Shown here in pieces: positions 1 through 62,984 of a stretch of DNA of 64,000 nt (its first letter is position 1; each line of letters begins with the position of its first letter). The stretch spans positions 18,483 through 82,482 of the forward strand of contig CAWCZZ010000005.1 of assembly GCA_963800195.1 (NCBI GenBank). The letters run 5' to 3'. The notes under the pieces are model-generated. The model was not told where the DNA came from and did no database searches. It was given only the letters and a program-made list of their open reading frames with translations. The position numbers and the translations under genes are program-made. The stretch comes from an uncultured Acidobacteriota bacterium. GTDB lineage: Bacteria; Acidobacteriota; Terriglobia; Terriglobales; Acidobacteriaceae.

Positions 1-327
1 GAGGACCCAAACGCGCGGTTCGGAACTGAGATTCCCAGTGGTAGCGGTGGCAGCATAGACCTTGTGGTCAAAACTGTCGAGGGATTCTTCGATTTGTACG
101 AAGTCAAACCCGCGGATGCAGCCCGCCACGCCATTCGGCAGGCGCTTCCACAGCTCCTTGAGTACGCTTTCCGGTCCGAAAATCCAAAAATACGGAACCT
201 CTATATCGTTTCCAATGCTGATTTGGATATCGTTTCTGAGAAGTTCTTGCGCAAACTGCAGGCTCGGAATCTCCCCGTCTACTATCGGCACGTGCCTTGT
301 GTTCTGACTGAAATATCTGACAAATAA
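1..327 (+). CDS. C-terminal fragment of a PD-(D/E)XK (NucS/DUF91-like) nuclease-fold protein; 5-prime end lies outside the window
   Basis: Frame 1 is open from base 1 to the stop at 325-327; track ORF 64..327 is its tail. The translation GSGGSIDLVVKTVEGFFDLYEVKP...RQALPQLLEYA has a D-x(n)-E-x-K layout typical of this fold. Convergent with the pAgo gene. Confidence 0.3.
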   Translation, partial: EDPNARFGTEIPSGSGGSIDLVVKTVEGFFDLYEVKPADAARHAIRQALPQLLEYAFRSENPKIRNLYIVSNADLDIVSEKFLRKLQARNLPVYYRHVPCVLTEISDK

Positions 328-510: not shown

Positions 511-1920
511 TTACATATAGAAACTGTATCGAGGCTCTATTCGTTGACCTTCTGTACAGTGCTTCAAAACTTTTCCTACACCCGCTGCCGCCGTAATAGT
601 CAAAGGCATGCTGCCATCGAATTGTGTGCTGTTCCAGTTCATTTTCGTTAGCGCGAGGATTTCCTTTGCAAGCGCAAGCGGCGTTTCCTCCCCGCCAGCG
701 ATGGTAACCTCAATCGGTCGAGGGACATATAAACCTGGATAGGTCTCGAAAAATGGGACACTGCCTTTGGTATAGAGACAGAAGCTTCTCGAACTCGCTT
801 GCAAGAAGGTCCCGCGAAGCGGAGGATATACGCCATCGCGGTAAAGTCGGATATTCGAATCGGTAACGTGCAGAAAATCGAAAATATCAACGCCTGCCTG
901 ATGCATCGCGGATTTTGCACCCGCTAATTCGTCCGCTGAAAACGCAGAACTCTTATGAACTACAACCCTCGCCGGAAGTGTTTATGCATTTCGCGGTATC
1001 GCGCTAGAGAGTTCTTGAGTAGTCCCTCACAATCTTTTCTTCTCAGATGTGGCTGCCGATCTTCTTTCGACAGCGCGGCGGCCCCGCCACGCACAACGAT
1101 GCCTTCACCTAATTCGTTGAAGACCTGGGCCATACTCGTAGTCAGGCGCGACTGATCGAGGGTCTCGAAGAAACTGATGCCGACGAAGCAAGAGGCAAGC
1201 TGATATGGGTCTCGTTGAAGTCTCCAGGGGTACCACCCGCCTTGTAGTAGAGAGCCGAGAAAAAGTTCCACGCTCTGGTCGCCTCATCCTGAAGTGGCCG
1301 TGGTGTTCCTGCACGCTTCTGTTCTTGGCTTTCGATTCGTCGTACGTACCCGGAAGAACTAGCTGAATAGGTATACGCAATTGCATCGAGCGAGCCTTCA
1401 AGAGATGGTGCAAGTCCATTCTTCCAGGTGACCGCCGTTCTTCCGAGAGGAGCTCAAGTAATTCAAGGGGAATGGCGCACACTATGACATCCGGCTTTGC
1501 GTTCTCGCAGAGAACTTCCATCTCGCTGAGAAAAAGCTGCGTAGCCGATTCAATTCGAAGGTTCATATCGGCAACCGCGCTCAGTTTCGAGATTGAGCCT
1601 CCAGCGATGTTTCTTATCAACGCTCGATCTGTCTCAAAGAGGCAACAAAACGAACTTGAAGAGGAGATTGGAGGAAATGCCGGAAATAGATTAGGCTGTT
1701 TGCTCTCTTTCCGTCCAATGCCAAGTTTGCATTTCTCGATCCAAAGCGAGGCTGCCTCGGTTGTTTCAGCAGTGCCAATTAGTCCAATCTGAATTCGCTT
1801 GGGCGCCCGTGGCGATTGCATATCGAAAGGGCCGTAATCACGAATGCCAAAACGAATATCGATATGTCGGGCATTCCCGCCGAACTCCAATTCCGGTTCT
1901 TCCAATATCGACAGATTCAT
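511..1920 (-). pseudogene. short prokaryotic Argonaute (MID-PIWI only), reading frame broken at 3 or more places (true pseudogene or assembly indels)
   Basis: Minus-strand ORFs 1105..1920, 960..1271 and 511..906, plus one short segment in the third frame, join into one protein of about 470 aa. The pieces read MNLSILEEPELEFGGN...LKARSMQLRIPIQLVLPGTY / LQDEATRAWNFFSALYYKAGGTP / WRLQRDPYQLASCFVGISFF...MAQVFNELGEG / VVVHKSS...MHQAGVDIFDF...LALTKMNWNSTQFDGSMPLTI. There is no N or PAZ region. The ATG overlaps the upstream stop (ATGA). Confidence 0.75.
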
Positions 1921-3299
1921 AACCCAAGCTCTCCCTGTTCCAGATCTTCTGCTTGCTCTTGCTCCGGATCCATCTGCTTTTCAGCATCTTCCCGCTTGAG
2001 CCAGTCAGAATCATTGAATCCGCTATCCACCTTGAATTGCAGGAGAGGGAAAAACTTCAGCTGGTTACTTTGATTGAACAAGTTCTCTGTCTGGACGACT
2101 GCGCCCCACATCACGACTTGCCCGTGAACCGCCTGGTTGTTTTCAAGGCGTTTGATTCCACTTAGCGCATCAGAACTGAATCGGCTGTCATTCCACCCGT
2201 CCCGCGTGAACCGATAGGTTGGCGTAATCTGCAAAAACCAGTTTCCGTCCAGTTGCAAGAAGTGACCAGTGAACGCCGAATGGCGGTAATAGGAGGTCTT
2301 GCTCGGATCTAGCTTCGATTGATACCGCTTGAAGACATCACGGCTTGCCTCCTTTCGCCGACTCATGTACTTCCGGCTAACGTCCGAAAGATCATCACTC
2401 GCCCGATGATAAAAACATCCGAGCAGCTTTGAGTAATAGATGTCGTCTTCGCGAAGCTGTTCCTGAAGCGTGACGTTCAAAAGCTCGACGAAAAGGTTTC
2501 GACGAACAGGATCCGTATTCAATGACCATTCGAAAGTGAGATCACTTTCAACTGTGCCAGTTTCCGCGACAGGTTCCCATCGATTCTCCGAAAGGTCAAA
2601 AAAAGAGTAGATCGTCTGATCGTGGACGATAAAGGCGCGTGCCACTTTTCCGTTGGGGTGAGCCGCATAGAGCTCATTCAACGCATCCTTACGTGACGAC
2701 TGAATGGCGCGTGCTCGGAAATAGCGATTAGGGAATTCGCGAATGGGCAGCAAGTCCGAAAAGATGACCTCCCGTCGTGGCTTCGCGCCCAGGTAATACC
2801 CGCCATCGGTCGGGACAGCGATTCGCTTCAGACATTCTGCGGCTGACAAATCGAAAACATCGTCCAACTTTGAAAAGCGAATGGTCTTGCTGGCCTTGCG
2901 CTGTGGGTCGGCGAAGTAGTCGCGTATGGAAACCCAGTACGCTTCATCCGTCCTTGGCCGCGAGCATATCAAAATTACCGGAAGGTTTCCCCGAAGCCAA
3001 TACTGGAGATCTCTGTCGCTGCATCCAAAACTAAAGTGACTGGGCGTTTCGGATTGGAATGCCCCATCAGTCGCCTTGCTTTGCACCGAAATTACGAGAT
3101 TGGTGACCTCGCCGGATTCCGCGCGGATTTCTAGCCGACCATCAATGCCGGCTTCGACGCCGCCGGACGGATACCAGAGATATCCCATCTCCAGAAGGCG
3201 GCGCTCGATGATGTTGACGCCAAGAGCGCCCGTGATGTCGCTCTTCCCGATCTTTTTGGGGCCACCGACACGCTGGGTCATGGATAGTCCGTCCGGCAA
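1917..3299 (-). CDS. DUF4365 (Mrr/DREN-type PD-(D/E)XK nuclease) fused to an APAZ-like region; effector partner of the short pAgo (SPARDA-type)
   Basis: Intact 460-aa ORF. The N-terminus GALGVNIIERRLLEMGYLWYPSGGVEAGIDGRLEIR...LVISVQSKAT matches the DUF4365 D...E...QxK pattern. About 300 aa of C-terminal region has the size and position of APAZ. The gene sits directly upstream of the pAgo and is translationally coupled to it. Confidence 0.7.
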   Translation of the reverse strand: MPDGLSMTQRVGGPKKIGKSDITGALGVNIIERRLLEMGYLWYPSGGVEAGIDGRLEIRAESGEVTNLVISVQSKATDGAFQSETPSHFSFGCSDRDLQYWLRGNLPVILICSRPRTDEAYWVSIRDYFADPQRKASKTIRFSKLDDVFDLSAAECLKRIAVPTDGGYYLGAKPRREVIFSDLLPIREFPNRYFRARAIQSSRKDALNELYAAHPNGKVARAFIVHDQTIYSFFDLSENRWEPVAETGTVESDLTFEWSLNTDPVRRNLFVELLNVTLQEQLREDDIYYSKLLGCFYHRASDDLSDVSRKYMSRRKEASRDVFKRYQSKLDPSKTSYYRHSAFTGHFLQLDGNWFLQITPTYRFTRDGWNDSRFSSDALSGIKRLENNQAVHGQVVMWGAVVQTENLFNQSNQLKFFPLLQFKVDSGFNDSDWLKREDAEKQMDPEQEQAEDLEQGELGL

Positions 3300-3542
3300 T
3301 AAATGCTTTAATTCTAGTGCATTATTGGCGTAGCAAGAATTGCCCTCCAGGTTTCGGACAGGTTCGGGGCTTTTCCCGGCCGCAGGTCGTCGGTAACCAT
3401 GAAGTCGGCTACCTCCCCGGTTGGGCGTCTTGACGCTCTTTTTGGGCTCACGTAACGGTATAGTGACCGGTCAGTGTCATACCGAGATTCTCGATCAGTT
3501 CGGCAGGAGCTAAGGTTAGGCTGTGCATTGGGAGCGAGAGCC

Positions 3543-4400
3543 ATGGAGGCATTCAAGTATTCTGACCTGCTTCTTCGCTTAGCAGGTTTCGACGCGTGGC
3601 TGACTGGCCTAGGATTGACGCTGCATCCGAACGACCGCATTCACGAAGCTATCAAAACTCTTCACAGGGCGGAAGAGGCGAGTCGCAAAGGACGAGAAAC
3701 TGGGGTCTACATCGATATTCAACCCCGGGACTGGTTCCCGATTATCGAAGCACTTGAAGCACATGATGTCTTTACTGCCTTTCAGAACGACCCGTCACCC
3801 GCGATTGCTGCAGCACTGAAAAGAGCTCTATCCGGCCCGATCCACCCGATTAACGAAAGCCCGAAGAACAGCGATGGTAGGAATATTTGGTATGAACTCG
3901 CACTTGCAGCCGAATGGAGATTGCGGGGTGCTTCGGTTATCGTGGAAGAGCCGGACTTGCGACTCACTAGAAATAGCGTCACATTTCTGGTGGCGTGCAA
4001 GCGACCAGCGAAGGAACAGAGCATTCACGCAAATATTCGCGACGCGATAGAGCAGCTTCAACAAACCTTGGACAAGACACCGCATGGCGCTTTTGGAGTC
4101 GCTGCGATTTCTCTTACTTGTGTATTCAATCCCGGAGACAAGGTTTTCTCGGGAGAGATGAAGGCGCTAGGAAAGCTCCTCGAAAATGAACTCGATAAAC
4201 ACCGGCGGTACCTTCGGTCGGTGGATGATCCCAGAATCTGCTGCGTTGTGTTTCATATTGCGACGCCTTGTGTTGGTGGCGAAATCGTTGATCTGGCGCG
4301 GGCAACGTACAGCGTTGCGCAGGAGCTGAAACACTCTTCCATCGGCTCGAGGACCTTTCGGGAACATGCACTAGATATGCGTAGTAGCCGTAGATGTTGA
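3543..4400 (+). CDS. hypothetical protein with a possible restriction-endonuclease-like core
   Basis: ORF 3474..4400. The ATG at 3543 is preceded by gggag. The segment NIWYELALAAEWRLRG...VEEPDLRL...TFLVACKRP resembles an E...PD...xK core. Divergent from the DUF4365-APAZ gene. Confidence 0.45.
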   Translation: MEAFKYSDLLLRLAGFDAWLTGLGLTLHPNDRIHEAIKTLHRAEEASRKGRETGVYIDIQPRDWFPIIEALEAHDVFTAFQNDPSPAIAAALKRALSGPIHPINESPKNSDGRNIWYELALAAEWRLRGASVIVEEPDLRLTRNSVTFLVACKRPAKEQSIHANIRDAIEQLQQTLDKTPHGAFGVAAISLTCVFNPGDKVFSGEMKALGKLLENELDKHRRYLRSVDDPRICCVVFHIATPCVGGEIVDLARATYSVAQELKHSSIGSRTFREHALDMRSSRRC

Positions 4401-4407
4401 GAGCGGT

Positions 4408-4430
4408 GCTTCGCTTTAGCGAAGCTTATT
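4408..4430 (+). terminator. weak hairpin terminator after the 3543..4400 gene
   Basis: gcttcgc-ttta-gcgaagc followed by ttatt, 8 nt after the stop codon. Confidence 0.3.
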
Positions 4431-4799
4431 CGGTACGCCACGCAGACTTCGCTACTAGCCCAAAAGCGGCCCGCGTCAGAAAAGTTTGAAAGGCTTGCAA
4501 GCGATGCGAACTCAGACCTTATTCGACCGCAATAGGTGACATCAAACCGGCTGAACCAGCAGCAAAGTCGTTTTGAGGCGATGTCCACTCGTCTGCCAGA
4601 AAACTGCAGACGAGAAAATAGCTGACCATCCTCTGCGCTCCAATCGCGGTTGCCCGCCACATTTTCTTGTCTACGCTCTGCCGCGGACACTCCCTAACAG
4701 CTGGCGTTCTACTTCTTGCAATGGAATCCTGTCGCCGATCGCCAATGCGAATGCGTAAGGCGAGGCAACTCTGCATTGAGTAAAACGGAGCGAGATCGA

Positions 4800-5033
4800 A
4801 TGGAAACGATATCAGTGAGACGAGCTGCCGCGGAGCTGCGCTGCACCATCACCTACGTGTATCAGCTCTTATGGGCGGGAAGAATCGACGGAGCAACCAA
4901 AGTGGGACGGCAATGGAAGATTCCGTCGGAAGCCATCAACAAGAGAGTGTCCTCAAGCCAAGCGATCGCGGCCACGATCGCCAGCCCGAAATTGAATGCC
5001 AAAAACCGCGCACCGCGCCTGGAGAGTCTATGA
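4800..5033 (+). CDS. excisionase/MerR-type helix-turn-helix DNA-binding protein
   Basis: METISVRRAAAELRCTITYVYQLLWAGRIDGATKVGRQWKIP is an excisionase-family HTH pattern. The RBS acggag lies upstream of the ATG at 4800. Confidence 0.55.
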   Translation: METISVRRAAAELRCTITYVYQLLWAGRIDGATKVGRQWKIPSEAINKRVSSSQAIAATIASPKLNAKNRAPRLESL

Positions 5034-5263
5034 CCACAATTGCTTTGCGTAATCAACTAGTTAGCACCAAAGAAGCCTCCGAGATCCTGGGCCGTTCGCC
5101 GGCCACGCTGAAGCGCTGGCGCTACGAAGGGGACGGGCCAAAGTATGTAGAAATCCGGCGCAGAATCCGCTACGATGTCTCCGTTCTTCAGGAGTACATC
5201 CGGACGAACACACGAGTGCCTTCCGTGCGGGCTGCATTGGAGGAGATTCGTGGAAGTATTTAA
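5030..5263 (+). CDS. AlpA/excisionase-type helix-turn-helix protein
   Basis: MTTIALRNQLVSTKEASEILGRSPATLKRWRYEGDGPKYVEIRRRIRYDVSVLQEYI. Overlaps the stop of the previous gene and runs into the integrase start. Confidence 0.55.
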   Translation: MTTIALRNQLVSTKEASEILGRSPATLKRWRYEGDGPKYVEIRRRIRYDVSVLQEYIRTNTRVPSVRAALEEIRGSI

Positions 5264-6293
5264 ACAAAAGAAGTCGAAGTTCTGGTGGTATGACTTCGCC
5301 GTCCGGGGCAAAAGATTTCGAAGGTCCACGGGCGAGACGAACAAAAATAGGGCAGAGAAAATCGCGTCCTTGAAGTTCGCTGAGATTTGCGAGCACGGAG
5401 ATCCTCTTCCAAGGAAGGCTCCCACCGTGCTCGAAGTGTCAAAGCGCTTTTTGGAATCGGTGGACGATTCCCGGCTGGTGGAGAATTCCAAACTGTATTA
5501 CCACCGTGGATGGCGTCTTCTGTCAAAAACGCCCGTCATTGGACTGCGCCTGGATTTGGTGACGAACGAGGTTGCCGGGACTCTCCGGTTTGGGGGATCG
5601 CCGGCCACCACCAACTGCGCGTTGCGGACTCTGCGAAGACTCCTGCACAAAGCCGAGGATTGGAAGCTGATTCGGAGAGCACCGAAGATCAAGTTGGTCA
5701 ACGAGCAGGCGCGCAGCTTGCGTTTGGACGAAACGGCCGAGCGCAAACTTTTGGAAGCTGCTGCTCTTTGCAAGTGGAGGAGCAAGAGAACCCTGGAGCG
5801 GTTTACCCAAGTCTTGATCTTGGCCCGGGATACCGGAATGCGCAATGAGAAGGAGCTCTATCGGATGCGCATTGAGGATCTTTACTGGGACCAGCGGCTC
5901 ATCCATGTGGTGGACAGCAAGACCGAGAACGGCATCAGGTACGTACCGATGAGCGACCGGGTTTTTACAGTGTTGAAGACGCTTTGCGGGACCAGGAAAA
6001 AGGGCTGGGTGTTCGCGTCCAAGCGATCTGAATCCGGACATCTGACCACGATGGCCGCGAAGTTTCGCCAGGCACGCGAGAAGGCCGGACTGCCCAAGAA
6101 ATTGGTGTTGTATTGTGGCCGGCATGACTTCGGAACACGAGTTCTGAAGAATACCGGGAATCTGAAGCTGGTCATGAGTGCGATGGGGCACGTGGACGTC
6201 AAGACCGCGATGAAGTATCAGCATCCGGAACTTGGTATTGTGCGCTCGGCGCTCAACGACAGTAATCATGCGGTGTTGCCGCCAAGTGCGTAG
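5250..6293 (+). CDS. int: tyrosine-type site-specific recombinase (phage integrase family)
   Basis: GTG at 5250 follows aggag. Catalytic signature pieces are ARDTGMR, CGRHDFGTR (HxxR) and MGHVDVKTAMKYQH (Tyr). Ends 68 nt from the tRNA. Confidence 0.85.
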   Translation: MEVFKQKKSKFWWYDFAVRGKRFRRSTGETNKNRAEKIASLKFAEICEHGDPLPRKAPTVLEVSKRFLESVDDSRLVENSKLYYHRGWRLLSKTPVIGLRLDLVTNEVAGTLRFGGSPATTNCALRTLRRLLHKAEDWKLIRRAPKIKLVNEQARSLRLDETAERKLLEAAALCKWRSKRTLERFTQVLILARDTGMRNEKELYRMRIEDLYWDQRLIHVVDSKTENGIRYVPMSDRVFTVLKTLCGTRKKGWVFASKRSESGHLTTMAAKFRQAREKAGLPKKLVLYCGRHDFGTRVLKNTGNLKLVMSAMGHVDVKTAMKYQHPELGIVRSALNDSNHAVLPPSA

Positions 6294-6360
6294 CCAAAAT
6301 CGGCTACGTCATACTTTACGTCATACCGTTAAATCTCAACTTTGTAAGTTATTGAAAAGA

Positions 6361-6437
6361 TGGTGGGCCTGGTAGGGATTCGAACCTACAACCAAAGGAT
6401 TATGAGTCCTCTGCTCTGACCGTTGAGCTACAGGCCC
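6361..6437 (-). tRNA. tRNA with CAT anticodon, either elongator Met or Ile2 (lysidine) type
   Basis: The reverse complement GGGCCTGTAGCTCAACGGTCAGAGCAGAGGACTCATAATCCTTTGGTTGTAGGTTCGAATCCCTACCAGGCCCACCA folds as a cloverleaf with an encoded CCA. The acceptor pairs C4-G69 and C5-G68 resemble tRNA-Ile2. Confidence 0.85.
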
Positions 6438-6668
6438 TTTCAAACCTTCCGCTGCACGCGTGCAGACGGTGAACTTAGTTTAACTCACCTGGTGCGTCGC
6501 CGGAGAATCCCGGCTCTAATCGATTTTCACTCACGAATTGATGATCTTGATTTGGAGTTGACCGATGGCCTTTGCCGGCCGGTTCTACGTTTGGCGGGGG
6601 CACGGAAACCGCGGCGTCAGCATGAAGAGCCGCCCGCCGAGGCGGCTCTCGTGCGCAGGAAAACGGCG

Positions 6669-9149
6669 TTAGCTGGTGAACGCTAACGAGAGTAGGGTAC
6701 GTTGCTCCATCTGGTGAGCCTTGGCGGAGCCGGTGGCGGGGCTGGCCGCCGCCTGCCGCTTGATGGATAGCACGGGAAGGTTCGCTCCCGCCAGGCGGCG
6801 CAGGCGCGGATTCACAAAACTGAGCGCGCCCATGTTGGCTGGTTCCTCCTGCACCCACACCAGATCATGTGCGTTCTTGTAAGGCGCTATTGCGTCCAAA
6901 ATGTCCCGTTCCGGGAAGGGATAGAGCTGGTCCAGAAATAGGATTGCCGTGCTGGTGTTTTTCAGGCGTTTGCGCTCAGCCTCTAAATCGTGGCCGATCT
7001 TGCCGGTGCAGAGCAGAACGCGCGAGACATCGGAGGGTGAAATGTGGCTGTCCGGCACGACGGTCTGGAAGCGCCCTGCGCTCAGCGCGCTCAGCTCGCT
7101 GGCCGCGTCAGGATGACGCAACATGCTCTTTGGCGTGAAGCAAACCAGCGGCTTGCGCCACTTGCGCAGAGCCTGGCGGCGCAGCAGGTGGAAGAATTGT
7201 GCCGACGAAGATGGCTGGCATACCTGCATGTTGTCCCGTGCACACAGTTGCAGGTAGCGCTCGATGCGGGCGCTGGAGTGCTCCGGTCCCTGGCCCTCGT
7301 AGCCGTGCGGCAGCAGCAGAACCAGTCCCGAGAGCAGGCCCCATTTCTCTTCGCCCGCGCTGATGAACTGATCGATGACAATCTGCGCGCCGTTGGCAAA
7401 GTCTCCGAACTGCGCTTCCCATAGCGTCAGCGCCTCCGGAAAATCGCGGCTGAATCCATACTCAAAGCCGAGCACCGCGGCTTCTGAGAGCTCGGAGTTG
7501 TAGATCTCGATCATCGCCTGGTCGGGCGAGAGGTGCGCCAGCGGCATGTATTCACTCTCGTTCTCAACGTCGATGAGATAGGAGTGGCGATGGCTGAAAG
7601 TACCACGGCGCGAGTCCTGTCCACTCATCCGGATCGGGACGCCACTGGTGACCAGGCTGGCAAAGGCCAGCGCCTCGGCCATGCCGTAATCGATAAGGCG
7701 CTTGCCCGCCGCCATCTCCTGGCGCTGCTTGAGCAGGGCGGCAACCTTGGGATGGATGTGGAACTCCGCCGGATATTCGCCAAGCTTCATGCCAAGGCGC
7801 GTCAGCTCTTCCTCTGCCACCCCAGTATCAATCTCGTCGTCGGGCGTCCATTTGCCTCCAACGTATCCATCCCAGTAATCGGGGAGTTTGTAGAGCTTGG
7901 GCTTTTTGGTCATGGCCTTGGCCTCGACCTTGGCCTGCTGATAGCGCTCCCGGGATTCTGCAACCTGGCTCGCTACGTCAACGCCCAGACGCTTGGCGTA
8001 AATTTCATAGAGGGGCGGATGGGCCTTGATCTTGGCATACACAATGGGCTGCGTAATCGTGGGATCATCGACCTCGGAATGTCCATGGCGGCGGTAGCCA
8101 ATCAGGTCGATGAGAACATCGGAACCGAACTGGTAGCGATACTCAAGCGCGAGACGGCCGATGCGAACCACCGCCTCAGGGTCTTCTGCGTTGACGTGGA
8201 AGATAGGAATCGGCAGCCGCTTGGCGAGGTCGCTGGCGAAGCGTCCGCTGGCGTAATCGCAGGGATTGGTTGTGAAGCCGATCAGATTGTTGACGATGAT
8301 GTTGATGGTGCCGCCGACCTCGTAAGCGGGCAGGCAGCTCATGTTGAGGGTCTCGGCCCAGATACCCTGTCCCGCAAAGGCGGAATCGCCGTGCATCAGG
8401 ATAGGTAGCGTCTGGCGTTTGCCTTCTGCGCCGCGGCGGGTCTGCTTGGCACGCACTCTTCCCAGCGCTACCGGATCGACCGCCTCCAGATGGCTGGGAT
8501 TGCTGACCAGATGAATTCTCATGCGCTGGCCGTTGAAGTCGCGGAAGCCTGTGGCACCCAGATGATACTTCACGTCTCCGCCGCCCAGAGTCGAGCGCGG
8601 GTCAACGTCTTCAAAGCCGGCGTAAATATCGCTCGCCGAGCGGCCCACGGTATTGCGCACCACGGTAAGGCGTCCGCGATGGCTCATCGCCATCACGCAC
8701 TCTTCGGCGCCGTGTGAGGCGGCTCCGGTGAGGATCTCCTCCAGCAGCGGGATCAGCGAGGTATTGCCTTCCAGCGAGAATCGCTTGGTGCCGATGTAGA
8801 GTGTCTGCAACATCTGCTCAAAAATATCGGCTTCCACCAGCTGCTCGAGGATGGCTTTACTATCGACCTCGGGCTGCGCTCCTTCCAGACGGTCGATGAT
8901 CCATTGGCGCCGCTCAGGGTCGGGAATGTGCATGAACTCGGCGCCAACGGTGCCGCAGTAAATTTCGCGTGCCCGCTCCGCCTCCGGGCCGCTGATTCTA
9001 AGTGCGGGATAATCAAGCCGGGGAAAGTGGCCGAGTGGGTCGAGGTCGGCCTGCAGGTATCCCCAGCGACGGAAAAGATCGTAGATAAGTTCTGCCGGTT
9101 TGCCTTCCGGACTGACTTCAGCAGATGAAATAACTTGAGCCTGCGACAC
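6669..9149 (-). CDS. sucA: 2-oxoglutarate dehydrogenase E1 component
   Basis: Track ORF 6669..9218 contains GAEFMHI, LEGNTSLIPLL, HGDSAFAGQG and GYRRHGHSE motifs. The likely start is the GTG at 9149, which has aggag 4 nt upstream. Confidence 0.85.
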   Translation of the reverse strand: MSQAQVISSAEVSPEGKPAELIYDLFRRWGYLQADLDPLGHFPRLDYPALRISGPEAERAREIYCGTVGAEFMHIPDPERRQWIIDRLEGAQPEVDSKAILEQLVEADIFEQMLQTLYIGTKRFSLEGNTSLIPLLEEILTGAASHGAEECVMAMSHRGRLTVVRNTVGRSASDIYAGFEDVDPRSTLGGGDVKYHLGATGFRDFNGQRMRIHLVSNPSHLEAVDPVALGRVRAKQTRRGAEGKRQTLPILMHGDSAFAGQGIWAETLNMSCLPAYEVGGTINIIVNNLIGFTTNPCDYASGRFASDLAKRLPIPIFHVNAEDPEAVVRIGRLALEYRYQFGSDVLIDLIGYRRHGHSEVDDPTITQPIVYAKIKAHPPLYEIYAKRLGVDVASQVAESRERYQQAKVEAKAMTKKPKLYKLPDYWDGYVGGKWTPDDEIDTGVAEEELTRLGMKLGEYPAEFHIHPKVAALLKQRQEMAAGKRLIDYGMAEALAFASLVTSGVPIRMSGQDSRRGTFSHRHSYLIDVENESEYMPLAHLSPDQAMIEIYNSELSEAAVLGFEYGFSRDFPEALTLWEAQFGDFANGAQIVIDQFISAGEEKWGLLSGLVLLLPHGYEGQGPEHSSARIERYLQLCARDNMQVCQPSSSAQFFHLLRRQALRKWRKPLVCFTPKSMLRHPDAASELSALSAGRFQTVVPDSHISPSDVSRVLLCTGKIGHDLEAERKRLKNTSTAILFLDQLYPFPERDILDAIAPYKNAHDLVWVQEEPANMGALSFVNPRLRRLAGANLPVLSIKRQAAASPATGSAKAHQMEQRTLLSLAFTS

Positions 9150-21815: not shown

Positions 21816-23411
21816 CTAGAACTTGCTTTCAAAGTCAGCCAGGCGACGCTCCAGCCGCCATTCTTCCCTTGCTTTTTCGCTGCCGTTCAGGAACTTTGTG
21901 CAAGCCGAATTGGGCACCGCTGTGGGCCGCTCGCCCACGCACTCGCGCACCGGAACAAATTTGCGAGCATCGCTCCATAGGCTGGCGCCCGGAAGAAAGG
22001 AGTGCTCCAGGCTGGTGCGGGCCATCTTTTTCAGCGTCGAATAGTCCAGCCCCTGGTCCGTCACCGCGCGCTCGTACTCGCGCGTCATCTCCGAGCGGGA
22101 AACGCCCTCGTCATCAGTTGCCAGCGCCACCGGAACCCCTGCCTTTAAGTACATTGCCAGCGGGTGTTGCCGCCCCCGCACTCCCAAAATGCTGTCGTTC
22201 GAGCTCAGGCAGATTTCGACTGTGACGTTGCGCCGGGCCATCATGGCGAGCAGTTCGTGCGGGTTTTCCTCGTACATCACATCCACGCCGTGGCCAATTC
22301 GCTCGGCTTTGCCCAATTCGATGGATTCGCGGATATGAAAGCGCAATCCATCCGGCGGCACGATTCCTGGCGCGAGTTCTCCGGCGTGCAATGCAATATG
22401 CACGTTCGGGTACACGCTCTTCAGGTAGCTCAACATCATCATGTGGAATTGGAAGTCGTGCATCGGCACGTACCAATCTTCGGGTTGCACCAGGTTCAAC
22501 CCAACTACGCGTGGATCATGGCTGGCCAACTCAAACCCCATCAGCATCTGCGCAAAAACCTGTGACGGCCTTGCGCCGCGTGCCACGCTATAGATGTAGC
22601 GCACACGCACCGAGCAGGCGCCGCCCTGGGCTTCGGGCTCACGGTTGCACTTGAGCTGTGTGTTCTTGCCCTCTTCCATGGTGTCCAGGTTCTTGCGCGC
22701 CTCTTCCACCGCACTGTTGAAATCAGCGTCCAGAAGCTTTTTGCGCATCGCGGCAAAGTCGGCGTCGTAGCCGGCGCTAGCGCCCAGGGCCGAGGCGCGT
22801 CCGTGGTCCGGAGAGATCATCAGCTCCAGGTATTGCACGTTTCCGTTCGCAGCCCGCTGCGTCACCTCGGCCAGAATCTGCGACATATGAGCTTCGGTTG
22901 CGGGACCAAACTTGGAAAAGGTATCGAAGAAGTGATCGTGTCCATTGACCCACGGCTTCATACCCCGCATCGACCATGCATTGATCTCATTGCGATAAAG
23001 CTCCGGATCGGTCAATGCCTGGCGTGCTTCAGCCTGGTTGGGCTGGCAAGGAGCCTGCGCCAGTGCCAGTGACTGGCGATCCACGCACAGTCCAGACTCG
23101 GCCGCAAACTGCATCAGGCTCTCGGCGTAAACCGCGCCGGTAATGTGATTGTGCAGGTCGCCGCCCTTCGGCATCTCCTTCAGCAGGGCGTAAAGCGCAC
23201 CGTTGTTGCCGCGCGCCTCGTTCAGAGCTTTTTCCGCGCGTCCCTCCGGGGTCTCGGGTCGAGCTTCGGCCTGTTCTTTGGCAACTTGCTGAGCTGCGGT
23301 AGCCGGCCGTGCCGGAGAATTTTTGAACGCCTGAATCTGTGACCCGGCGGCGCCGATGGAAAGAACGGCGACAAGACAAATAGATAGCTTTCCCGCGCTA
23401 AGCAGGCGCAT
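21816..23411 (-). CDS. secreted adenosine deaminase family protein
   Basis: Signal peptide MRLLSAGKLSICLVAVLSIGAAGS, then DLHNH, IALHAGE, RIGHGVD, VEICLSSN and ATDDEGVSRS. Confidence 0.75.
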   Translation of the reverse strand: MRLLSAGKLSICLVAVLSIGAAGSQIQAFKNSPARPATAAQQVAKEQAEARPETPEGRAEKALNEARGNNGALYALLKEMPKGGDLHNHITGAVYAESLMQFAAESGLCVDRQSLALAQAPCQPNQAEARQALTDPELYRNEINAWSMRGMKPWVNGHDHFFDTFSKFGPATEAHMSQILAEVTQRAANGNVQYLELMISPDHGRASALGASAGYDADFAAMRKKLLDADFNSAVEEARKNLDTMEEGKNTQLKCNREPEAQGGACSVRVRYIYSVARGARPSQVFAQMLMGFELASHDPRVVGLNLVQPEDWYVPMHDFQFHMMMLSYLKSVYPNVHIALHAGELAPGIVPPDGLRFHIRESIELGKAERIGHGVDVMYEENPHELLAMMARRNVTVEICLSSNDSILGVRGRQHPLAMYLKAGVPVALATDDEGVSRSEMTREYERAVTDQGLDYSTLKKMARTSLEHSFLPGASLWSDARKFVPVRECVGERPTAVPNSACTKFLNGSEKAREEWRLERRLADFESKF

Positions 23412-23576
23412 GGCATTCTCCGGGGGGCGAACATGGCCCATAGAAGCGGAACACTCCGATCATATCGTGAAATAATGATTTCGGATGGGCCCAACGAATT
23501 CTATTGCGGCTGACGTCTTGCAGCCTTGGCCGATACCTTCTGGCATCCCCTTCTTCATCTCTGCCATAATCGCAAT

Positions 23577-24107
23577 ATGGAGCAACCCACAGTGCCGGAG
23601 CTAAGAGTACTTTTCTCGCGTCAACAGATTGCGTCCCGTGTCGCCGAATTGGCTCAGCAGATTTCCCGGGATTTTGCCGGTGAGCCGGTCGTTCTGGTGG
23701 GCGTACTCAAAGGCGCGGCCATCTTTCTCAGCGATCTCGCGCGCCTCCTCGAACTTGATGCCACCTTCGACTTCATCTCTGTTTCCAGCTATGCCAATCA
23801 GAAGCAGAACAGCGGCGAAGTCAAATTGCTGAAGGACGTCGATCAGTCGATGCAGGGCAAAAACGTCATTCTGGTCGAAGATATTCTCGACACCGGATTG
23901 ACCCTCTCCTACCTTAAAGACATGATTCTGGCACACCGTCCCAGGAGCTTCAAAATTGTTGCCCTGCTGGATAAAAAATGCCGCCGTCAGCAGCCCATTC
24001 AAGCCGACTACGTGGGATTTGAGATTCCCGATGAGTTCGTTGTAGGTTACGGCATGGACTACGCCGAGCGTTACCGCAACCTCCCCGATATTTGCGTCCT
24101 CCCGTAG
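23577..24107 (+). CDS. hpt: hypoxanthine phosphoribosyltransferase
   Basis: VLVGVLKGAAIFLSDLAR, ILVEDILDTGLTLSYL (PRPP loop), and VVGYGMDYAERYRNLP. Confidence 0.85.
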   Translation: MEQPTVPELRVLFSRQQIASRVAELAQQISRDFAGEPVVLVGVLKGAAIFLSDLARLLELDATFDFISVSSYANQKQNSGEVKLLKDVDQSMQGKNVILVEDILDTGLTLSYLKDMILAHRPRSFKIVALLDKKCRRQQPIQADYVGFEIPDEFVVGYGMDYAERYRNLPDICVLP

Positions 24108-25057: not shown

Positions 25058-26382
25058 ATGCTTTTTGTCGAACTGATTCGCAAGAAGCGCGACGGCGGGG
25101 AACTGTCGCGTGACGAAATCGAGTTCATCGTCTCCGGTTACACCCGCGGCGCAACTTCCCGACTATCAGGTCGCCGCGTTCTTGATGGCCGCATTCCTGC
25201 GCGGGCTGAGCCATGAAGAGACCGCTGCGCTTACCGCCGCCATGCTCAACTCTGGCGAGGTGCTCGATTTTTCTGCCATTCCTGGCAGCAAGATAGACAA
25301 GCACTCCACCGGCGGCGTCGGCGACAAAACTTCGCTCCTGCTCGCCCCCATCGTAGCCGCTGGTGGCATCAACGTGCCCATGATCAGCGGTCGCGGTCTC
25401 GGACACACCGGCGGCACGCTGGACAAACTCGAAGCCATTCCCGGCTTCAACGTTCATCTCTCGCTCGAAGAGTTCCGCCGCATCCTCGCCGCAATCGGCT
25501 GCGCCATGATCGGCCAGACTGCCGATCTCGCTCCGGCCGACAAAAAGCTTTACGCCTTGCGCGATGTTATCGGAACCGTCGAAAGCCCATCCCTCATCTG
25601 CGCCTCCATCATGAGCAAAAAACTCGCCGAAGGAATCGACGGCCTCGTGCTTGACGTCAAGACCGGCTCCGGTGCTTTCATGAAAGAACCCGCCGACAGC
25701 CGTCTCCTGGCCCGCTTGATGGTGGAGACCGGCGAACGCATGGGCAAGAAGATGATCGCGCTCATCACCGATATGGATCAACCCCTGGGCCGTTACATCG
25801 GCAACGCCCTTGAGGTCGTCGAATGCGTCAACGTACTGCGCGGCCGCTTTGATGGCTCTGAAGATCTCGTCGAACTCACCCTTGAACTCTGCGGCTGGAT
25901 GTTTTTCCTCGGCCGGCGAAGCGCCACCAAGGACGAAGGACGCTCGCTCGCCCTTGAAATCATTCGCAGCGGCCAAGCCTTGCAGAAGTTCCGCGACCTC
26001 ATCCGCGAACAGGGCGGCGATCTTCGCTGCGTTGACGATCTCGCTCGCTTGCCGCGCGCCGCTTTTTGCGAAGATATCCTCGCCCCCGATAGTGGATTTG
26101 TCACGGCCATCCAGTGCGAGCGCATCGGCATAGCCGGAGTCCTCCTCGGCGCGGACGGAGCACCAATGAAGAAGCGATCGATCCCGCCGTTGGAATCGTG
26201 CTGCACAAAAAGGTGGGCGAAGCAGTCTCCGCCGCGGAAGCTGCTCTGCACCGTTCATTACAATTCAGTCAGAGCGTTTTGCCCAGGCCAAGCCGGTCAT
26301 CGCCGCTGCCTACTCCATCGCCGCGCAAGCACCACCAGCGCGCGCGTTAATTCAGAAAGTGATTCAGGGCAGCTCAGTTTGA
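25058..26382 (+). pseudogene. deoA: thymidine/pyrimidine-nucleoside phosphorylase, at least 4 frame disruptions
   Basis: MLFVELIRKKRDGGELSRDEIEFIVSGYTRG, then (shift) PDYQVAAFLMA...DKHSTGGVGDK...SGRGLGHTGGTLDKLE. Further shifts occur near 26150, 26240 and 26270. The C-terminus reads AAAYSIAAQAPPARALIQKVI. Confidence 0.8.
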
Positions 26383-26413
26383 TTCAAACTCCGTGCCACT
26401 GAGGAGGGAAGCG

Positions 26414-27649
26414 ATGGGACGATTTACTGGAGTGCTCGGAGTGGTCCTGATGCTGGCTGTTGCCTGGCTCTTTTCCAGCAACCGCAAGGCCATTCGCTGG
26501 CGCGTCGTAGCCACCGGAGTCGCGTTGCAGATCCTCTTCGCCATCTTCGTTATCAAAGTATTGTGGGGACAACTGGCGATCGCCAAGGCCGGGGAAGGTG
26601 CCAGGCGCCTGCTCGCCTGCTCCTTTGCAGGTTCCCGCTTTGTCTTCGGAGAAGCCGGCGCGCAGAACTCCAGCCTCGGCTTCATCTTCGCCTTCCAGGT
26701 CTTGCCCGCCATTATTTTCATCGCGGCTTTTTTCGCCATTCTTTACTACTTCGGCGTCATGCAGATTCTCATTCGCATGGTCGCCGTGGTCATGGAGAAA
26801 ACTATGGCGCCAGCGGTGCCGAGTCGCTCAACGTCGCTGCCTCCATCGTCATGGGCCAGACCGAAGCTCCGCTCACCATTCGCCCTTATCTCCCGCGCCT
26901 CACTCAGTCTGAGCTGATGGTGGTCATGACGGCGGGCATGGCGCACGTCTCTGGCAGCATCATGGCCGCCTACATCGCCACCGGCGTAGCTCCCGCGCAC
27001 TTGCTGGCCGCCGTGATTATGACCGCGCCCGGAACTCTTACCGTGGCCAAAATGCTGGTGCCGGAGACCGAAGTTCCGGAGACCGCCAGCGGTGCCGCAT
27101 TGCCCAGCGAGGAGCGCGCCAGCAACGTGCTGGAAGCCGCAGCCAAGGGTACCAGTGACGGCTTCGCGCTGGCCCTGAACGTCGCTGCCATGCTGATCTC
27201 ATTCCTGGCCATCATCTTCCTCATCAATTCGCTGCTCGGTGGCACCCACAATTTTCTCGCCGCCCACGGCTTCGCCTGGTTCCCTGTCCAGCCTGGAGAA
27301 AATTTTCGGCATACTTTTCTGCTCCCATTGCCTTTATCATCGGAGTGCCATGGCATGATTGCATGGCCATCGGCAATCTGCTGGGTACGCGCATGGTATT
27401 GAATGAACTGGTCGCCTTTACCATGCTCGGCGCGCAGAAATCGGCGCTCGATCCACGCTCGTTCACCATCGCTACCTTTGCGCTTTGCGGCTTTGCCAAT
27501 TTCGGCTCCATCGGTATTCAGATTGGCGGTCTCGGCGCGCTGGCGCCATCGCGTCGCGCGCGACCTTGCCCGGCCTTGGCTTTAAAGCCATGATCGCCGG
27601 AACCATGGCGAATCTTATGTCGGCCTGCATTGTGGGAGTCCTGTTATGA
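26414..27649 (+). pseudogene. nupC: NupC-family nucleoside transporter, at least 4 frame disruptions
   Basis: MGRFTGVLGVVLMLAVAWLFSSNRKAIRWR..., then (shift) GASGAESLNVAASIVMGQTEAPL...SGSIMAAY, (shift) SLEKIFGILF, (shift) APIAFIIGVPWHDC...LCGFANFGSIGIQIGG, (shift) MIAGTMANLMSACIVGVLL. The RBS gaggaggg lies upstream of the ATG. Confidence 0.8.
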
Positions 27650-28527
27650 GTTCGCACGCAGATGTAAAGCACATGGCGATGGATGAGTTCACCCGCGCCG
27701 AATCCGCGGCGATGGTCATTCGTATGCAGCTTCGCAAAAGCCGCATCTCGGAGTACCGGAAATTGCGGTTGTGCTGGGTTCTGGCCTGGGTGCTTTTGCC
27801 GAGGAGTCTGGAAGATTCCGTTGCCATCCCGTACGCCGACATTCCAAATTTTCCGCGCTCCACCGCCATCGGCCATGCCGGACGCCTCGTCATAGGAAAG
27901 CTCGGCGCCTTACCGTCGCCGCCATGCAGGGACGCGTTCATCAATACGAAGGCTACAGCAGCCGCGAAGCTGGATTTCCGGTGCGCGTCCTCGCCCGCCT
28001 TGGCGTAAAGAGCCTCGTCCTCACCAACGCCGCCGGAGGCATCAACTCCGCTTACAGCCCAGGGAACGCTCGTCCTGCTCAGCGATCACATCAATCTGCA
28101 AGGAACCAACCCGCTCAACGGACCGAACGATGATCGTTTCGGCCCGCGCTTTCCGGACCTGAGCGAGGCCTATTGCCCCGACTATCGCCGCCTTGCGATG
28201 GACGCAGCCCGCGAGGTTGGCATCGATCTAAAGGAAGGTGTCTACGCCGCGTTGCCGGGCCCAAGTTACGAAACTCCAGCCGAGATCCGCTATCTTCGCA
28301 CCATTGGCGCCGATCTGGTCGGCATGTCCACCGTCCCCGAAGTCATCGTGGCCCGGCACATGGGAATCGCCGTACTGGCGATTTCCTGCGTAACCAATAT
28401 GGCCGCAGGACTTTCCGCTGGCACGATCAATCATGACGAGGTGTTGCAAACGGGAGAGCGCGTGCGCGAATCCTTCATTGCTCTTCTCACCGCGGTTCTT
28501 CCCCGAATCGCAGCTCACGGAAAATAA
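27646..28527 (+). pseudogene. punA: purine nucleoside phosphorylase (PunA type), 4 frame disruptions
   Basis: The segments alternate between two frames: AESAAMVIR... / PEIAVVLGSGLGAFAEE / VAIPYADIPNFPRSTAIGHAGRLVIGKLG / MQGRVHQYEGY...FPVRVLARLGVKSLVLTNAAGGIN / DHINLQGTNPL...STVPEVIVARHMG...TNMAAG. Confidence 0.8.
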
Positions 28528-39939: not shown

Positions 39940-41962
39940 TCACCGCTTCTTAGCCTTTTTCTTCTCCACTGCCTTTGCGGTAGTTTTCTTCGCCACAGGC
40001 TTCGCCGTTGGCTTGCTCGCAGCTTTGGCCGCAACCTTGGAAGGAGCTTTGGCTGCGACCTTGGCCTTTGCCGACTCAGCCTTCACTGCTGCAGCTTTCA
40101 CCGCTGCTTTCACCGGAGCAGCCTTTGCGGGCGGAGCTTGCGCCTTGACCGGCGGGGCCACTTTTGCCTCCACCGCAGTCTTCGCCACGGCGACCTTCGC
40201 GCCGGCCGCCTTGGACAATGTCTTTTCCGCTTTACCGGCGTTCTCTGCCTTGGCCGCGCCAGCCACGCCTTGATCCGCCTTGGCTGCGCTCTCTGCTTCC
40301 GGCTCGGCAGCAGCGCTGATCGTGCTGGCCGCCAGCGCCCTTGCCTTCGGCATAACCACCGTCGGAATCGGCGTCGGGCTCTCCACCCCAATCGCTCCCA
40401 GCTGGCGCAGCAGAACCTGCCGGATGTTGTCGATTGGCGCCGGTTTTCCAGTCCAGATTTCGAACTGTCGTGCCGCCTGGTGCACAAACATCTCCGCTCC
40501 GCTGATTGTGCCGCAGCCTTTGGACTGAGCCAACTTGATCAGCGGCGTTTCAATCGGGTTGTACACCGAGTCGAAGATCCAGGGCGCGTTCAATTCATTT
40601 TCTTCCAGCGGCGTCTCTCGATTGCTTCCCATCCCCACCGGCGTCGCGTTGAAGATCATGTCGAAATTCAGCTTCGGCAGATCGCTGCGCTTCACCACCT
40701 TCGCGCCGGAATCCTTGGCCAGCGCCTGTGCCGTCGCCGGAGTTCGATTCAGAATCGAGACCACCGCGCCCTTTTCCCGTCAGTCCAAAGACTGCGGCGC
40801 GTGCCAGTCCGCCTGCGCCCAGCACCAGCACTTGCGCCCCCTGCAGCGGAATCCGCGCCTCAATCGCCGCAATAATGCCGTAAACGTCCGTGTTGAATCC
40901 GAACAGTCTTCCGTCCTTGCCGCGAACAATCGTGTTGCAGGCTCCGGTCTTCTGGGTCAGCACGTCGCTGTTGTCCAGGTGCTCCACCACTGCCTGCTTG
41001 TAGGGCATGGTCACGCTCAGCCCATCCAGCGGCAGGTCTTTGACCGTGGAAAGCAGGTCGTCAATGGTCTTGGCATGCAGCGGCAGGTAAACGGCGTTTA
41101 CGTTCTCCCTGCGGAAGGCCGCGTTCATTACCCACGGCGACATCGAGTGCGAGACCGGATCGCCTGCAACCCCGTACACCTTGGTCACCGACTCAATCTG
41201 CTCGATGCGGTAGAAGTCCCGCAATTCACGATACGTCGGCTGCCCCGGAGCCGTCTCCTGCCCCTGCCCGGTCGAGCCGAAGGTGAACGATCCCCCGGCG
41301 CGAATGCACAGCACCCGGCTCAGCATCCCTTGCTCGCCCATGCAGGCGCCCACCATCGTGTACTCGGAGCTATGCCGCTCCAAAAAGCGGGTGAGCAACA
41401 CATTGTCATGCAGGCATGTGGCCGTGCCGATCACCTTGTAAAAGTCTGCGGTAAAGGCGCGCATCCGCGCAAAGCTCTCTTCCAGTTTGCTGCAGCTTTC
41501 AAAGTCGTGGCTTGAGAGCACGATCGCGGCGCGAGCGCGAAGCTCTTCCCAATCCGCTCCGCTCATCGCCTCGGCGCTCTCAATCGCCACGTCCAGAGCG
41601 GGGCAGCCGGCATCGGCCGCCTTGCGCAGCACTTCCAACTCGGTCTCCAGCGGCCCTTGGAACTTGCCTCCAGACACGGTACGTCGGCAGGTGGCGATGA
41701 CGATCGCATCGGGCCTCAACTCCATCAGCCGCCGCAACCGCGGTATCCCCGCCAGTGGAGCTTTCAGGTGGTCGAGCCGAAGCTCAATCAGCGTGTTTTC
41801 GCGCAATACCGTCTCCGCCTTTTCCATCATCTCGGCGGCGTCGGTACTCGTAATTGCAACGCATATCCGTGGAATACGGAGGCGTAGGGAGCGTGCGGCG
41901 TAGTTCATTTCTGGAACAGTCATTTCTGGGCAAATGGTAATGATGCAATCGCCCGGTTGCAA
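39940..41962 (-). pseudogene. fused 3-dehydroquinate dehydratase / shikimate dehydrogenase with an Ala/Lys/Pro-rich tail of about 150 aa; one frame disruption near 40770
   Basis: ORF 40595..41962 holds AroD-like (ICVAITS...ELRLD...SSHDF) and AroE-like (VYGVAGDPVSHSMSP...NTD...LVLGAGGLARA) parts. ORF 39940..40764 continues with NATPVGM...DSVYNP...FVHQAARQFEIWTG, then KAAxK-type repeats in the same frame. Confidence 0.7.
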
Positions 41963-42244
41963 TGCCTGAATGCATTTTTAGTTCATAATTATCAAGAAAG
42001 TTGCGGAAGTGCCCTTTCAGTCACCGGTTTACGCACGCTTTACGTGCACGGTCCACTGCTTACCTCTATGTTTGCGTCCATGAGTGCTTGTATCGTGCGT
42101 CCTGGGGTGCGTTGTCCCGGAGTGCGTCTGGGGTACGTCCATAGTTACTTGACCATCGCTTCCCGCTTTGTTAGCTTCCGATTCATAATCGTGCACGCTT
42201 TTTTTGGGCAAGCGCCGCTCAGCGGCTGAAATGAGAGCACGGAA

Positions 42245-52323: not shown

Positions 52324-52466
52324 GCTCTAGCTCCTCGTTTGATAGCCAATTGGTTTATCGGGTGAATCATTGAGTAGGGGGTAAGGGGAAGTCAACTAGA
52401 TATTGCTAGTAGTTGTTACTAAAGTTTTTAATCAATTCTAAAAGTTATAGTCCGCGAGGCAGCGCG

Positions 52467-53174
52467 ATGTTGATTTCAGATTTGCAGGATCGTCTGCGGG
52501 CTCTGGTTGGTGAGCGCATTGATGCCGGTGAGTTGTCAGGGACGAAGTTGGCAAAGCTGGCCGGTTTTCAGCAAGCGCATGTTTCCAATTTTCTAAATCG
52601 ACGCAGGGGATTGAGCATCGAGGCGATGGACCGGATCATGGAGGTCCTACGGCTGGACGTTCGCGACCTGACGCCGGAGGAGCGCAGACGGAGAGAACCG
52701 GCAGGTGGCGGTGAAGCCGGCTTTGATTCGATTCCAATGGTGCGGAACGAGGATTTGTTGCGGCGCGATTTCAATGCCGGCAGGGTCATTGAGTATCTGC
52801 ACTTCAAGAAGAGCTTTTTGCGGCGGCTTCGTCCGGAGATGGCGAACCAGCGCCAACATTGGCAGCGCTTTGTGCTGATCAAGGCAGATAAGGATTGTGG
52901 TGCGGCGATGAGTCCGAGGTTGCCGCCGGGAGCGACGCTGTTGATCGACCGGCACTACAACTCGCTGCGCTGCTACCGGCGGATGGAGCCGAATCTATAC
53001 GTTGTAAAGAGCGGCGACGACTTTGTGGTTCGCTATGTGGAGATGCAAGGGGACCAACTTACGCTTCGTCCCGAGAATCCGAAGCATGCTCTGGGATGGG
53101 TGCGGTTGGGCAAGGGCGAGACATTTGCGGACTGCGTGGTTGGACGGGTGGCTATAGTCGCGATGGAAATTTAA
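52467..53174 (+). CDS. CI/LexA-like repressor (XRE HTH plus S24 peptidase-like C-terminal domain)
   Basis: LAKLAGFQQAHVSNFLNRRRGLSIEAMDRIMEVL is an HTH. The C-terminal AAMSPRLPPGATLLIDR...YVVKSGDDFVVRYVE has the S24 Ser...Lys layout. Confidence 0.6.
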   Translation: MLISDLQDRLRALVGERIDAGELSGTKLAKLAGFQQAHVSNFLNRRRGLSIEAMDRIMEVLRLDVRDLTPEERRRREPAGGGEAGFDSIPMVRNEDLLRRDFNAGRVIEYLHFKKSFLRRLRPEMANQRQHWQRFVLIKADKDCGAAMSPRLPPGATLLIDRHYNSLRCYRRMEPNLYVVKSGDDFVVRYVEMQGDQLTLRPENPKHALGWVRLGKGETFADCVVGRVAIVAMEI

Positions 53175-53206
53175 GCGACTTTCAAAACCTATAGAAGGGG
53201 AGAGGG

Positions 53207-53349
53207 TTGCTTCCCAGCTTATCGCCGAAAAACGTCGGCGCGAAGCTGGGGCACCCGACCGCTTCGTATAACCGCGTAGTAGGCAAGAGCAACAGCCATT
53301 GCAAAGGTTGCAGGTGCGGAGGACATTGCTTCCCAGCTTATCGCCGAAA
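53207..53349. repeat. two 24-bp direct repeats (ttgcttcccagcttatcgccgaaa), 119 bp apart, each opening a long imperfect hairpin
   Basis: Copies at 53207-53230 and 53326-53349 are identical. The first forms CCCAGCTT-at-CGCCGA-aaaacg-TCGGCG-cg-AAGCTGGG. Confidence 0.7.
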
Positions 53350-53554
53350 GGCCGCGGCTTCGCAGTCGGGGACGCGGCAAATACCGCCGCTTCGGCTGCG
53401 GGCGCAGGACGAGAATTTTTGTTGTCAAGAGCAGATATTTTCAAATCACAAAGTAAGTAGCTGATATCAAATCAAATAGAGTTTGTGTCTCTGGTGAGGG
53501 GGAACAGGGGGTGAAGTTGATATCCTGAAGATAAGAAGAGGGAGAGGGGCGGCG

Positions 53555-54103: not shown

Positions 54104-54158
54104 GGTAGAAGGGCGAGCACCGGGCAGTAAGCCGGAATCGAGCGGGGCGAGCGCTGGC

Positions 54159-58284: not shown

Positions 58285-58334
58285 GGGAAGGCAGCAGCTG
58301 GTAGCGTCGGCATCGGCACAACCATGTATAAAGT

Positions 58335-58361
58335 GGGGCCGCTCGAAGGGGCGGCCTTTTT
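58335..58361 (+). terminator. Rho-independent terminator after the tail-fibre gene
   Basis: ggggccgc-tcgaa-ggggcggcc followed by ttttt. Confidence 0.65.
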
Positions 58362-58480
58362 GCATGCGCGTGCGGGGGACGACAGCGAAGAAGTGGGCGG
58401 GCAAGGCGAGGGCTTGAGGCCGAAAAGCCTATGGAGCAACGGGGAGATTTGAGCGGTGATGGGGTTCCTAGCGTTGCTCG

Positions 58481-58796: not shown

Positions 58797-58800
58797 ATGC

Positions 58801-62982: not shown

Positions 62983-62984
62983 GG

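Follow-up and report, generated by a model that had tools for sequence, protein, structure and literature searches.

In a 64,000-nucleotide (nt) stretch of DNA from an uncultured Acidobacteriota bacterium of the family Acidobacteriaceae (positions 18,483 to 82,482 of contig CAWCZZ010000005.1, GenBank assembly GCA_963800195.1; the whole stretch is referred to here as the window), the gene of a short prokaryotic Argonaute (pAgo) is broken in frame beside the open gene of its nuclease partner. Comparison with related sequences indicates that the locus is very probably an intact SPARDA operon, and that the three breaks in its Argonaute gene arose as single-base errors in the consensus of this assembly rather than as mutations. 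The two genes overlap on the minus strand between 511 and either 3281 or 3299, the effector lying upstream and the short Argonaute downstream:

511–1920, minus strand: short prokaryotic Argonaute consisting of MID and PIWI domains only; 1410 nt as written, stop at 511–513
1917–1920, minus strand: effector stop and pAgo start overlapping as ATGA, by direct reading
1917–3281, minus strand: DREN-APAZ effector, 454 amino acids (aa) from the ATG at 3281; intact
2826–3227, minus strand: DREN (DUF4365, PD-(D/E)xK) nuclease domain, by Pfam; predicted catalytic residues E43, D47, Q67 and K69 (454-aa numbering)

By its sequence, the operon is a typical SPARDA system, in which an S2B-clade short pAgo is joined to a DREN-APAZ effector in an Acidobacteriaceae host. 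PADLOC, the Pfam DUF4365 model and the solved SPARDA structures agree on this architecture, which had been proposed in an original prediction made from the sequence alone. For both proteins the best solved-structure matches fall within SPARDA chains (9qbp, 9qbl, 9qbq, 9qcc and 9jsb; E-values of 1e-102 to 1e-47). The pAgo aligns end to end with 9qbp_B (9.9e-103), 9qbl_B (5.6e-102) and 9jsb_A (4.7e-91), while the effector is best matched by 9qbp_A (4e-51), the DREN-APAZ chain 9jsb_D (2.1e-47) and 9qbq_A (2.8e-46).

The effector gene is open throughout. Its open reading frame (ORF) extends to a TTG at 3299 (1917–3299) and would then encode the 460 aa of the original prediction, but a length of 454 aa from the ATG at 3281 is more likely, as four other contigs, each encoding an identical 454-aa protein, have their start called there. 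DUF4365 is matched at residues 25–158 of the 460-aa ORF (2.6e-26), and the PADLOC model Aga_REase-PNTD1-PNTD2 is matched over positions 3–426 of 429 (2.9e-133). This full-length match, together with the alignment of 9jsb_D over residues 9–404, places the APAZ region C-terminal to the nuclease within one protein; SIR2-APAZ models match the effector in the APAZ half only. When the effector is aligned to 9qbp_A and a chain offset of 21 residues is corrected for, E43, D47, Q67 and K69 correspond to E37, D41, Q62 and K64 of XauSPARDA, which are catalytic by mutagenesis. The protein ends in an acidic C-terminal tail, DSDWLKREDAEKQMDPEQEQAEDLEQGELGL, that resembles the autoinhibitory tail described for XauSPARDA. 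At the gene junction the effector TGA (1917–1919) overlaps the pAgo ATG (1918–1920), and the two genes are translationally coupled, as had been predicted. The same 4-nt overlap and gene order are found in five related contigs (L001, L002, L085, L086 and L087).

The Argonaute is recognizable despite its breaks. Its fragments match consecutive positions of the PADLOC model pAgo_I (1–198, 218–304 and 331–455), and restoring three bases yields a gene of 1413 nt encoding 470 aa that matches the model over its entire length (9.3e-164, positions 1–455 of 455). The motifs quoted in the original prediction are present, namely ATRAWNFFSALYYKAGGTP/WRL, which is split by a frame change, and LALTKMNWNS. 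The refuting condition set with that prediction was formally triggered by half: DUF4365 was recovered in the effector, but the Pfam Piwi model gave no match to the repaired Argonaute at E<=0.01, nor to the pieces of the broken gene. This missing match is a sensitivity limit of the Pfam model, whose matches are on record for some close homologues, and the PADLOC and solved-structure searches are decisive.

The breaks were placed by DNA alignment to near-identical contigs and by frameshift-aware protein-to-DNA alignment. The coding frame runs from 2 to 1 to 0 and back to 2, so that the predicted breaks exist and their number, given as at least three, is exactly three. Compared with five intact contigs, each is a 1-nt deletion in a homopolymer run of 3 to 5 bases, and a further window-specific change lies just beyond the gene:

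1322–1323, minus strand: frame break 1, AAG AAA CAG written as AAG AAC AG, one A of AAA lost (K199 K200 Q201, MID domain; plus strand TT versus TTT in relatives)
1227–1230, minus strand: frame break 2, ACC CCC TGG written as ACC CCT GG, one C of CCCCC lost (T231 P232 W233; plus strand GGGG versus GGGGG in relatives)
981–983, minus strand: frame break 3, CAT AAA ACA written as CAT AAA CA, one A of AAAA lost (H313 K314 T315, PIWI domain; plus strand TTT versus TTTT in relatives)
476, no strand: intergenic single-base insertion a short way past the pAgo stop, which neither L001 nor L002 has

Together the insertion and the three breaks form one patch of four indels in 0.85 kb (476–1324).

Intact alleles of the Argonaute are found in other samples. 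A protein search with the joined translation returned a 470-aa protein (P0001) at 99% identity and thousands of homologues, many of them 470 aa long, from Acidobacteriaceae and about 70% identical. L001, the contig that encodes P0001, and another contig, L002, share 99.4–99.55% identity with the window over 4.7–4.9 kb, and both carry an unbroken pAgo gene. The repaired protein is 100% identical to P0129, for which four contigs, each from a different sample (ERZ27249030, ERZ28653482, ERZ19991534/JGI Ga0302320 and SRR8556253), have an intact gene; the variant P0001 occurs on a fifth. Relative to the closest contig, L086, the only changes in the pAgo gene of the window are the three deletions and a single synonymous substitution, with no nonsynonymous change and no stop. 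When JGI metagenome contigs were scanned for both forms of the CCCC(C) run at the second break, the intact allele alone was recovered, on one contig, and no independent contig had the deletion.

Natural variation is seen upstream of the effector, at 3399–3412, where the window shares a 9-bp deletion and a C-to-T change with L003 and L004 that are not present in L001 or L002; therefore, the haplotype of the window exists in other samples.

Similar single-base damage occurs in chromosomal genes elsewhere in the window. Candidate broken genes were nominated with a codon-score map that flagged same-strand ORF pairs with long overlaps, followed by Pfam and synteny. GC content at third codon positions was also tried as a reference-free frameshift detector and did not discriminate; the codon-score map served for nomination only. 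The syntenic region was retrieved from related Acidobacteriaceae genomes by way of the joined NupC; the best relatives are 79–90% identical and carry the gene contiguously. Indels were then established by tblastn of the relatives' ORFs, by frameshift-aware protein-to-DNA alignment and by multi-reference DNA alignments that took in as many as six relatives. The coding sequences of host chromosomal genes contain at least 15 single-base indels specific to the window:

21113: one indel in the S1/P1 nuclease gene
24314 and 24801: two indels in deoC
25152, 26235, 26271 and probably 26152: three to four indels in the pyrimidine-nucleoside phosphorylase gene
26805, 27285, 27320, 27559 and 27574: five indels in nupC
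27730, 27807, 27907 and 28056: four indels, in compensating pairs, in the gene at 27586–28524

Broken genes are also visible in the domain matches. The Pfam match of the S1/P1 nuclease ends halfway through the model, the NupC-type nucleoside transporter is scattered over three ORFs (26363–27593), and the Pfam domains of an AroD/AroE fusion are split over two frames (40595–41977 and 39940–40779), the C-terminal domain lying in the other frame, a split noted at about 40500–40930. The compensating indels of the gene at 27586–28524 were first suggested by comparison at about 64% identity and were accepted after multi-reference DNA alignment. Two events suggested in a control gene at 21.8–23.7 kb gained no confirmation and were not counted. 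After frame correction, all four of the S1/P1 nuclease, deoC, phosphorylase and nupC genes are free of in-frame stops and are 77–88% identical to their orthologues, as are the unbroken control genes. The indels are patchy, reaching about 4 per kb in 24.3–28.1 kb while 17.5–19.85 kb and 21.8–24.1 kb are clean, and the pAgo patch has the same density of about 4 per kb. The gene at 21816–23700 is unbroken in the window and in both L005 and L006, but its orthologue in L007, an 'MFD' metagenome-assembled genome, carries a frameshift of its own; such errors are therefore not unique to the assembly of the window.

Housekeeping genes of the window show single-base errors of the same kind, which is why the pAgo breaks are read as assembly errors. 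Damage that consists of indels only, is patchy, strikes housekeeping genes and leaves the proteins otherwise untouched argues for consensus error and not for evolutionary decay. With intact alleles elsewhere and window-wide indels at similar local density, the artefact that the original prediction had offered as its alternative is the explanation favored here. Even the contrast between a broken sensor and an intact effector is uninformative: with indels averaging about 0.9 per kb in the regions that were compared, a gene of 1.37 kb would stay clean with a probability of about 0.3. Three points weigh on the other side. The errors are deduced by comparing sequences and were not seen in reads. 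The error profile is mixed, since the pAgo events are homopolymer deletions whereas most of the host-gene events are insertions outside homopolymers. Homopolymer slippage is, moreover, also a natural route of mutation.

The first alternative to consensus error is that three slippage mutations truly inactivated the Argonaute sensor while DREN-APAZ was kept, leaving a recently dead system or an orphan effector. This is unlikely, although the sequence as given does show three deletions, all in homopolymers where natural slippage occurs, the effector gene has no DNA differences from L001 across 2 kb of alignment, and island-borne defence systems are often lost. The damage is confined to indels, three of them against one synonymous substitution and no amino-acid change; at a natural indel to substitution ratio of 1:5 to 1:10, the probability of such an outcome is roughly 0.003–0.016 by our own estimate. 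Three signs expected of a genuine pseudogene are missing. No disruption was found in independent assemblies (the five contigs, in all of which pAgo is intact, and site 2 in the metagenome scan), and no nonsynonymous change or stop points to relaxed selection in the corrected frame, whose translation is 100% identical to P0129. Nor is the disruption specific to pAgo, as the host-gene indels and the split aroDE attest; with at least 15 similar indels and no stops in housekeeping genes of the window, a story particular to the Argonaute is unnecessary. In the characterised systems the effector has no activity when its Ago is missing, which leaves no obvious selective reason to retain it. SPARDA toxicity depends on Ago and DREN-APAZ together, and the DREN domain is inactive in isolation (bioRxiv 10.1101/2025.04.08.647717; PMC12205087). 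The biological premise of a knocked-out sensor is weak for this reason, and the reading that the original prediction offered conditionally, of a lost sensor beside a retained and potentially toxic effector, is not supported, given homopolymer deletions without amino-acid change, five intact assemblies and equally broken chromosomal genes.

Pseudogenisation could instead be real and genome-wide, with pAgo, the nucleoside-catabolism genes and aroDE all decaying, as the many frame-broken genes within one window might suggest. This is very unlikely. Single genes hold as many as five indels, yet the four corrected genes contain no stops and have no excess divergence from orthologues compared with intact neighbours. 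One gene combines insertions and deletions in compensating pairs, a gene of the shikimate pathway (aroDE) is among those hit, and the same genes are unbroken in the relatives, which are free-living Acidobacteriaceae from soil. Finally, it is extremely improbable that programmed ribosomal frameshifting or transcriptional slippage decodes the frame changes, or that they act as phase-variation switches. The events do sit in homopolymer runs, but these are only 2 to 4 nt as written, which falls short of known slippery sites and phase-variable tracts. One gene would, moreover, need three separate recoding events, and near-identical relatives encode pAgo in a single frame.

Taken as an intact SPARDA operon, the locus can be compared with systems whose structures are solved. 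The original prediction called this type of system sparsely characterised, a description now out of date given several papers on SPARDA mechanism and structure from 2023 to 2026. The closest are XauSPARDA from Xanthobacter autotrophicus Py2 and EaeSPARDA from Enhydrobacter aerosaccus (PDB 9qbl, 9qbq, 9qcc and 9qbp; bioRxiv 10.1101/2025.04.08.647717), which provide the best solved matches (pAgo 1e-102 over residues 5–469; effector 4e-51 over residues 6–438). Like them, the locus is a two-gene operon of a DUF4365/DREN-APAZ protein and a MID-PIWI short pAgo of about 470–485 aa, and the catalytic E, D and Q-x-K of DREN are kept. It differs in its diverged sequences, in lacking an insertion of about 8–13 residues that the solved chains carry in the MID linker, and in its host phylum, Acidobacteriota. 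The architecture is also that of NbaSPARDA from Novosphingopyxis baekryungensis (PDB 9jsb and related entries; PMC12205087; PMC12774872; bioRxiv 10.1101/2023.06.08.544223), which matches the pAgo at 4.7e-91 and DREN-APAZ at 2.1e-47.

The comparison with NbaAgo extends to the guide-binding pocket. As an examination suggested with the original prediction confirmed, the MID 5'-phosphate pocket is kept: H171, K175, Q186 and K227 align with NbaAgo R183, K187, Q198 and K240. More broadly, NbaAgo K187, Q198, R221, Q224, N232 and K240 align with K175, Q186, R208, Q211, N219 and K227 here. The residues of the 5'-phosphate and adenine pocket that differ cluster in one segment:

about 1354–1416, minus strand: altered MID pocket residues, within pAgo residues 169–189, by alignment to NbaAgo

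In this segment NbaAgo R183, N181, F182 and W201 are replaced by H171, D169, L170 and L189. The 5'-phosphate contact is thus a histidine where the solved SPARDA Agos have an arginine (HK-type versus RK-type), and the adenine-specific asparagine of those proteins aligns with Asp169. The guide 5'-nucleotide preference may, on this alignment, differ from the 5'-AU of characterised SPARDAs. The PIWI DEDX catalytic tetrad is probably absent, as the closely homologous SPARDA Agos have been described as lacking catalytic activity.

SPARTA and SPARSA (TIR-APAZ and SIR2-APAZ; e.g., PDB 8fex, 8ifk and 8qlo) are more distant parallels. They likewise combine a short pAgo with an APAZ sensor and oligomerise when triggered by guide and target, and their pAgo half matches across the MID-PIWI region at 1e-32 to 1e-37. 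Their effector is an NADase (TIR or SIR2), in contrast to the PD-(D/E)xK nuclease encoded here. The active form of SPARTA and SPARSA is a tetramer, whereas that of SPARDA is a filament (PMC12205087).

In characterised SPARDAs, RNA guides with a 5'-phosphate are bound in the MID pocket, and once complementary DNA is recognised, DREN-APAZ has its acidic C-terminal tail displaced and a beta-relay within PIWI shifts. The complexes then assemble into filaments and their DREN domains form tetramers, whereupon the PD-(D/E)xK site cleaves DNA without specificity and the cell dies. Filament assembly dependent on guide RNA and target DNA, with collateral nuclease activity, is known for the Xau, Eae and Nba systems only. 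By homology to these three, a mechanism can be proposed for the operon of the window. The heterodimer of Ago and DREN-APAZ would load short 5'-phosphorylated RNA guides through the MID pocket formed by H171, K175, Q186 and K227, and when the guide pairs to complementary DNA of an invader, this would push the sensor loops of PIWI. The complexes would then polymerise into filaments that unite four DREN domains, whose PD-(D/E)xK sites (E43, D47, Q67 and K69) would cut DNA indiscriminately. Killing or arrest of the cell would block the spread of the plasmid or phage.

The operon is carried on an integrase island at a tRNA-Met gene, as the original prediction of a tRNA island had it. The relevant features adjoin one another:

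4716–5263, plus strand: two tandem excisionase (Xis)-like HTH_17 ORFs (Pfam HTH_17, 5.7e-06 and 1.2e-10)
5175–6293, plus strand: tyrosine integrase (Pfam Phage_integrase, 1.7e-21)
6361–6437, minus strand: tRNA-Met (CAT), the integration site, found with ARAGORN, its 3' end towards the integrase

GC content is about 0.52–0.54 on the island versus 0.59–0.61 past tRNA-Met (about 52% against about 60% in the host). The far end of the island lies beyond the left edge of the window, and no second copy of the tRNA-Met 3' end (attachment-site repeat) was found in the window or in the related contigs. Between the operon and the Xis/integrase module, a 285-aa ORF (3543–4400, plus strand) is kept in L001 and L002; it has no Pfam or PADLOC matches.

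Past the left edge of the window, downstream of pAgo, three further island proteins are encoded in related copies, as in L085 at 2962–6782:

347-aa protein of L085, its C-terminus corresponding to window 64–327: no family match
412-aa protein of L085: PADLOC candidate PDC-S60 (5.8e-26), weak DUF4062
292-aa protein of L085: PADLOC PDC-S31 (1.4e-15), DUF2971

These three proteins suggest a multi-system defence island. At the opposite end of the window, the region from about 52400 to 64000 looks like a prophage, where GC content rises to 0.64–0.66 and GC skew is strongly positive:

52413–53174: CI/LexA-like repressor with a helix-turn-helix and Peptidase_S24
59437–61107: terminase large subunit
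62165–62752: DUF3037

SPARDA systems have already been described and structurally solved, and the locus adds one more orthologue, from a soil member of the Acidobacteriaceae. It also calls for caution, as the assembly contains patches of single-base indels, and frame-broken findings in the window, and probably in the genome, should be discounted until reads are checked. That the three deletions are real, making this a natural SPARDA whose Argonaute sensor has just been lost beside an unchanged DREN-APAZ, is judged quite unlikely from the sequences compared; if true, it would hint at an Ago-independent use of the effector or offer a snapshot of very recent decay of a defence system. A minor lead is the HK-type MID pocket with its altered 5' adenine contacts, with which the guide 5'-nucleotide preference may differ.

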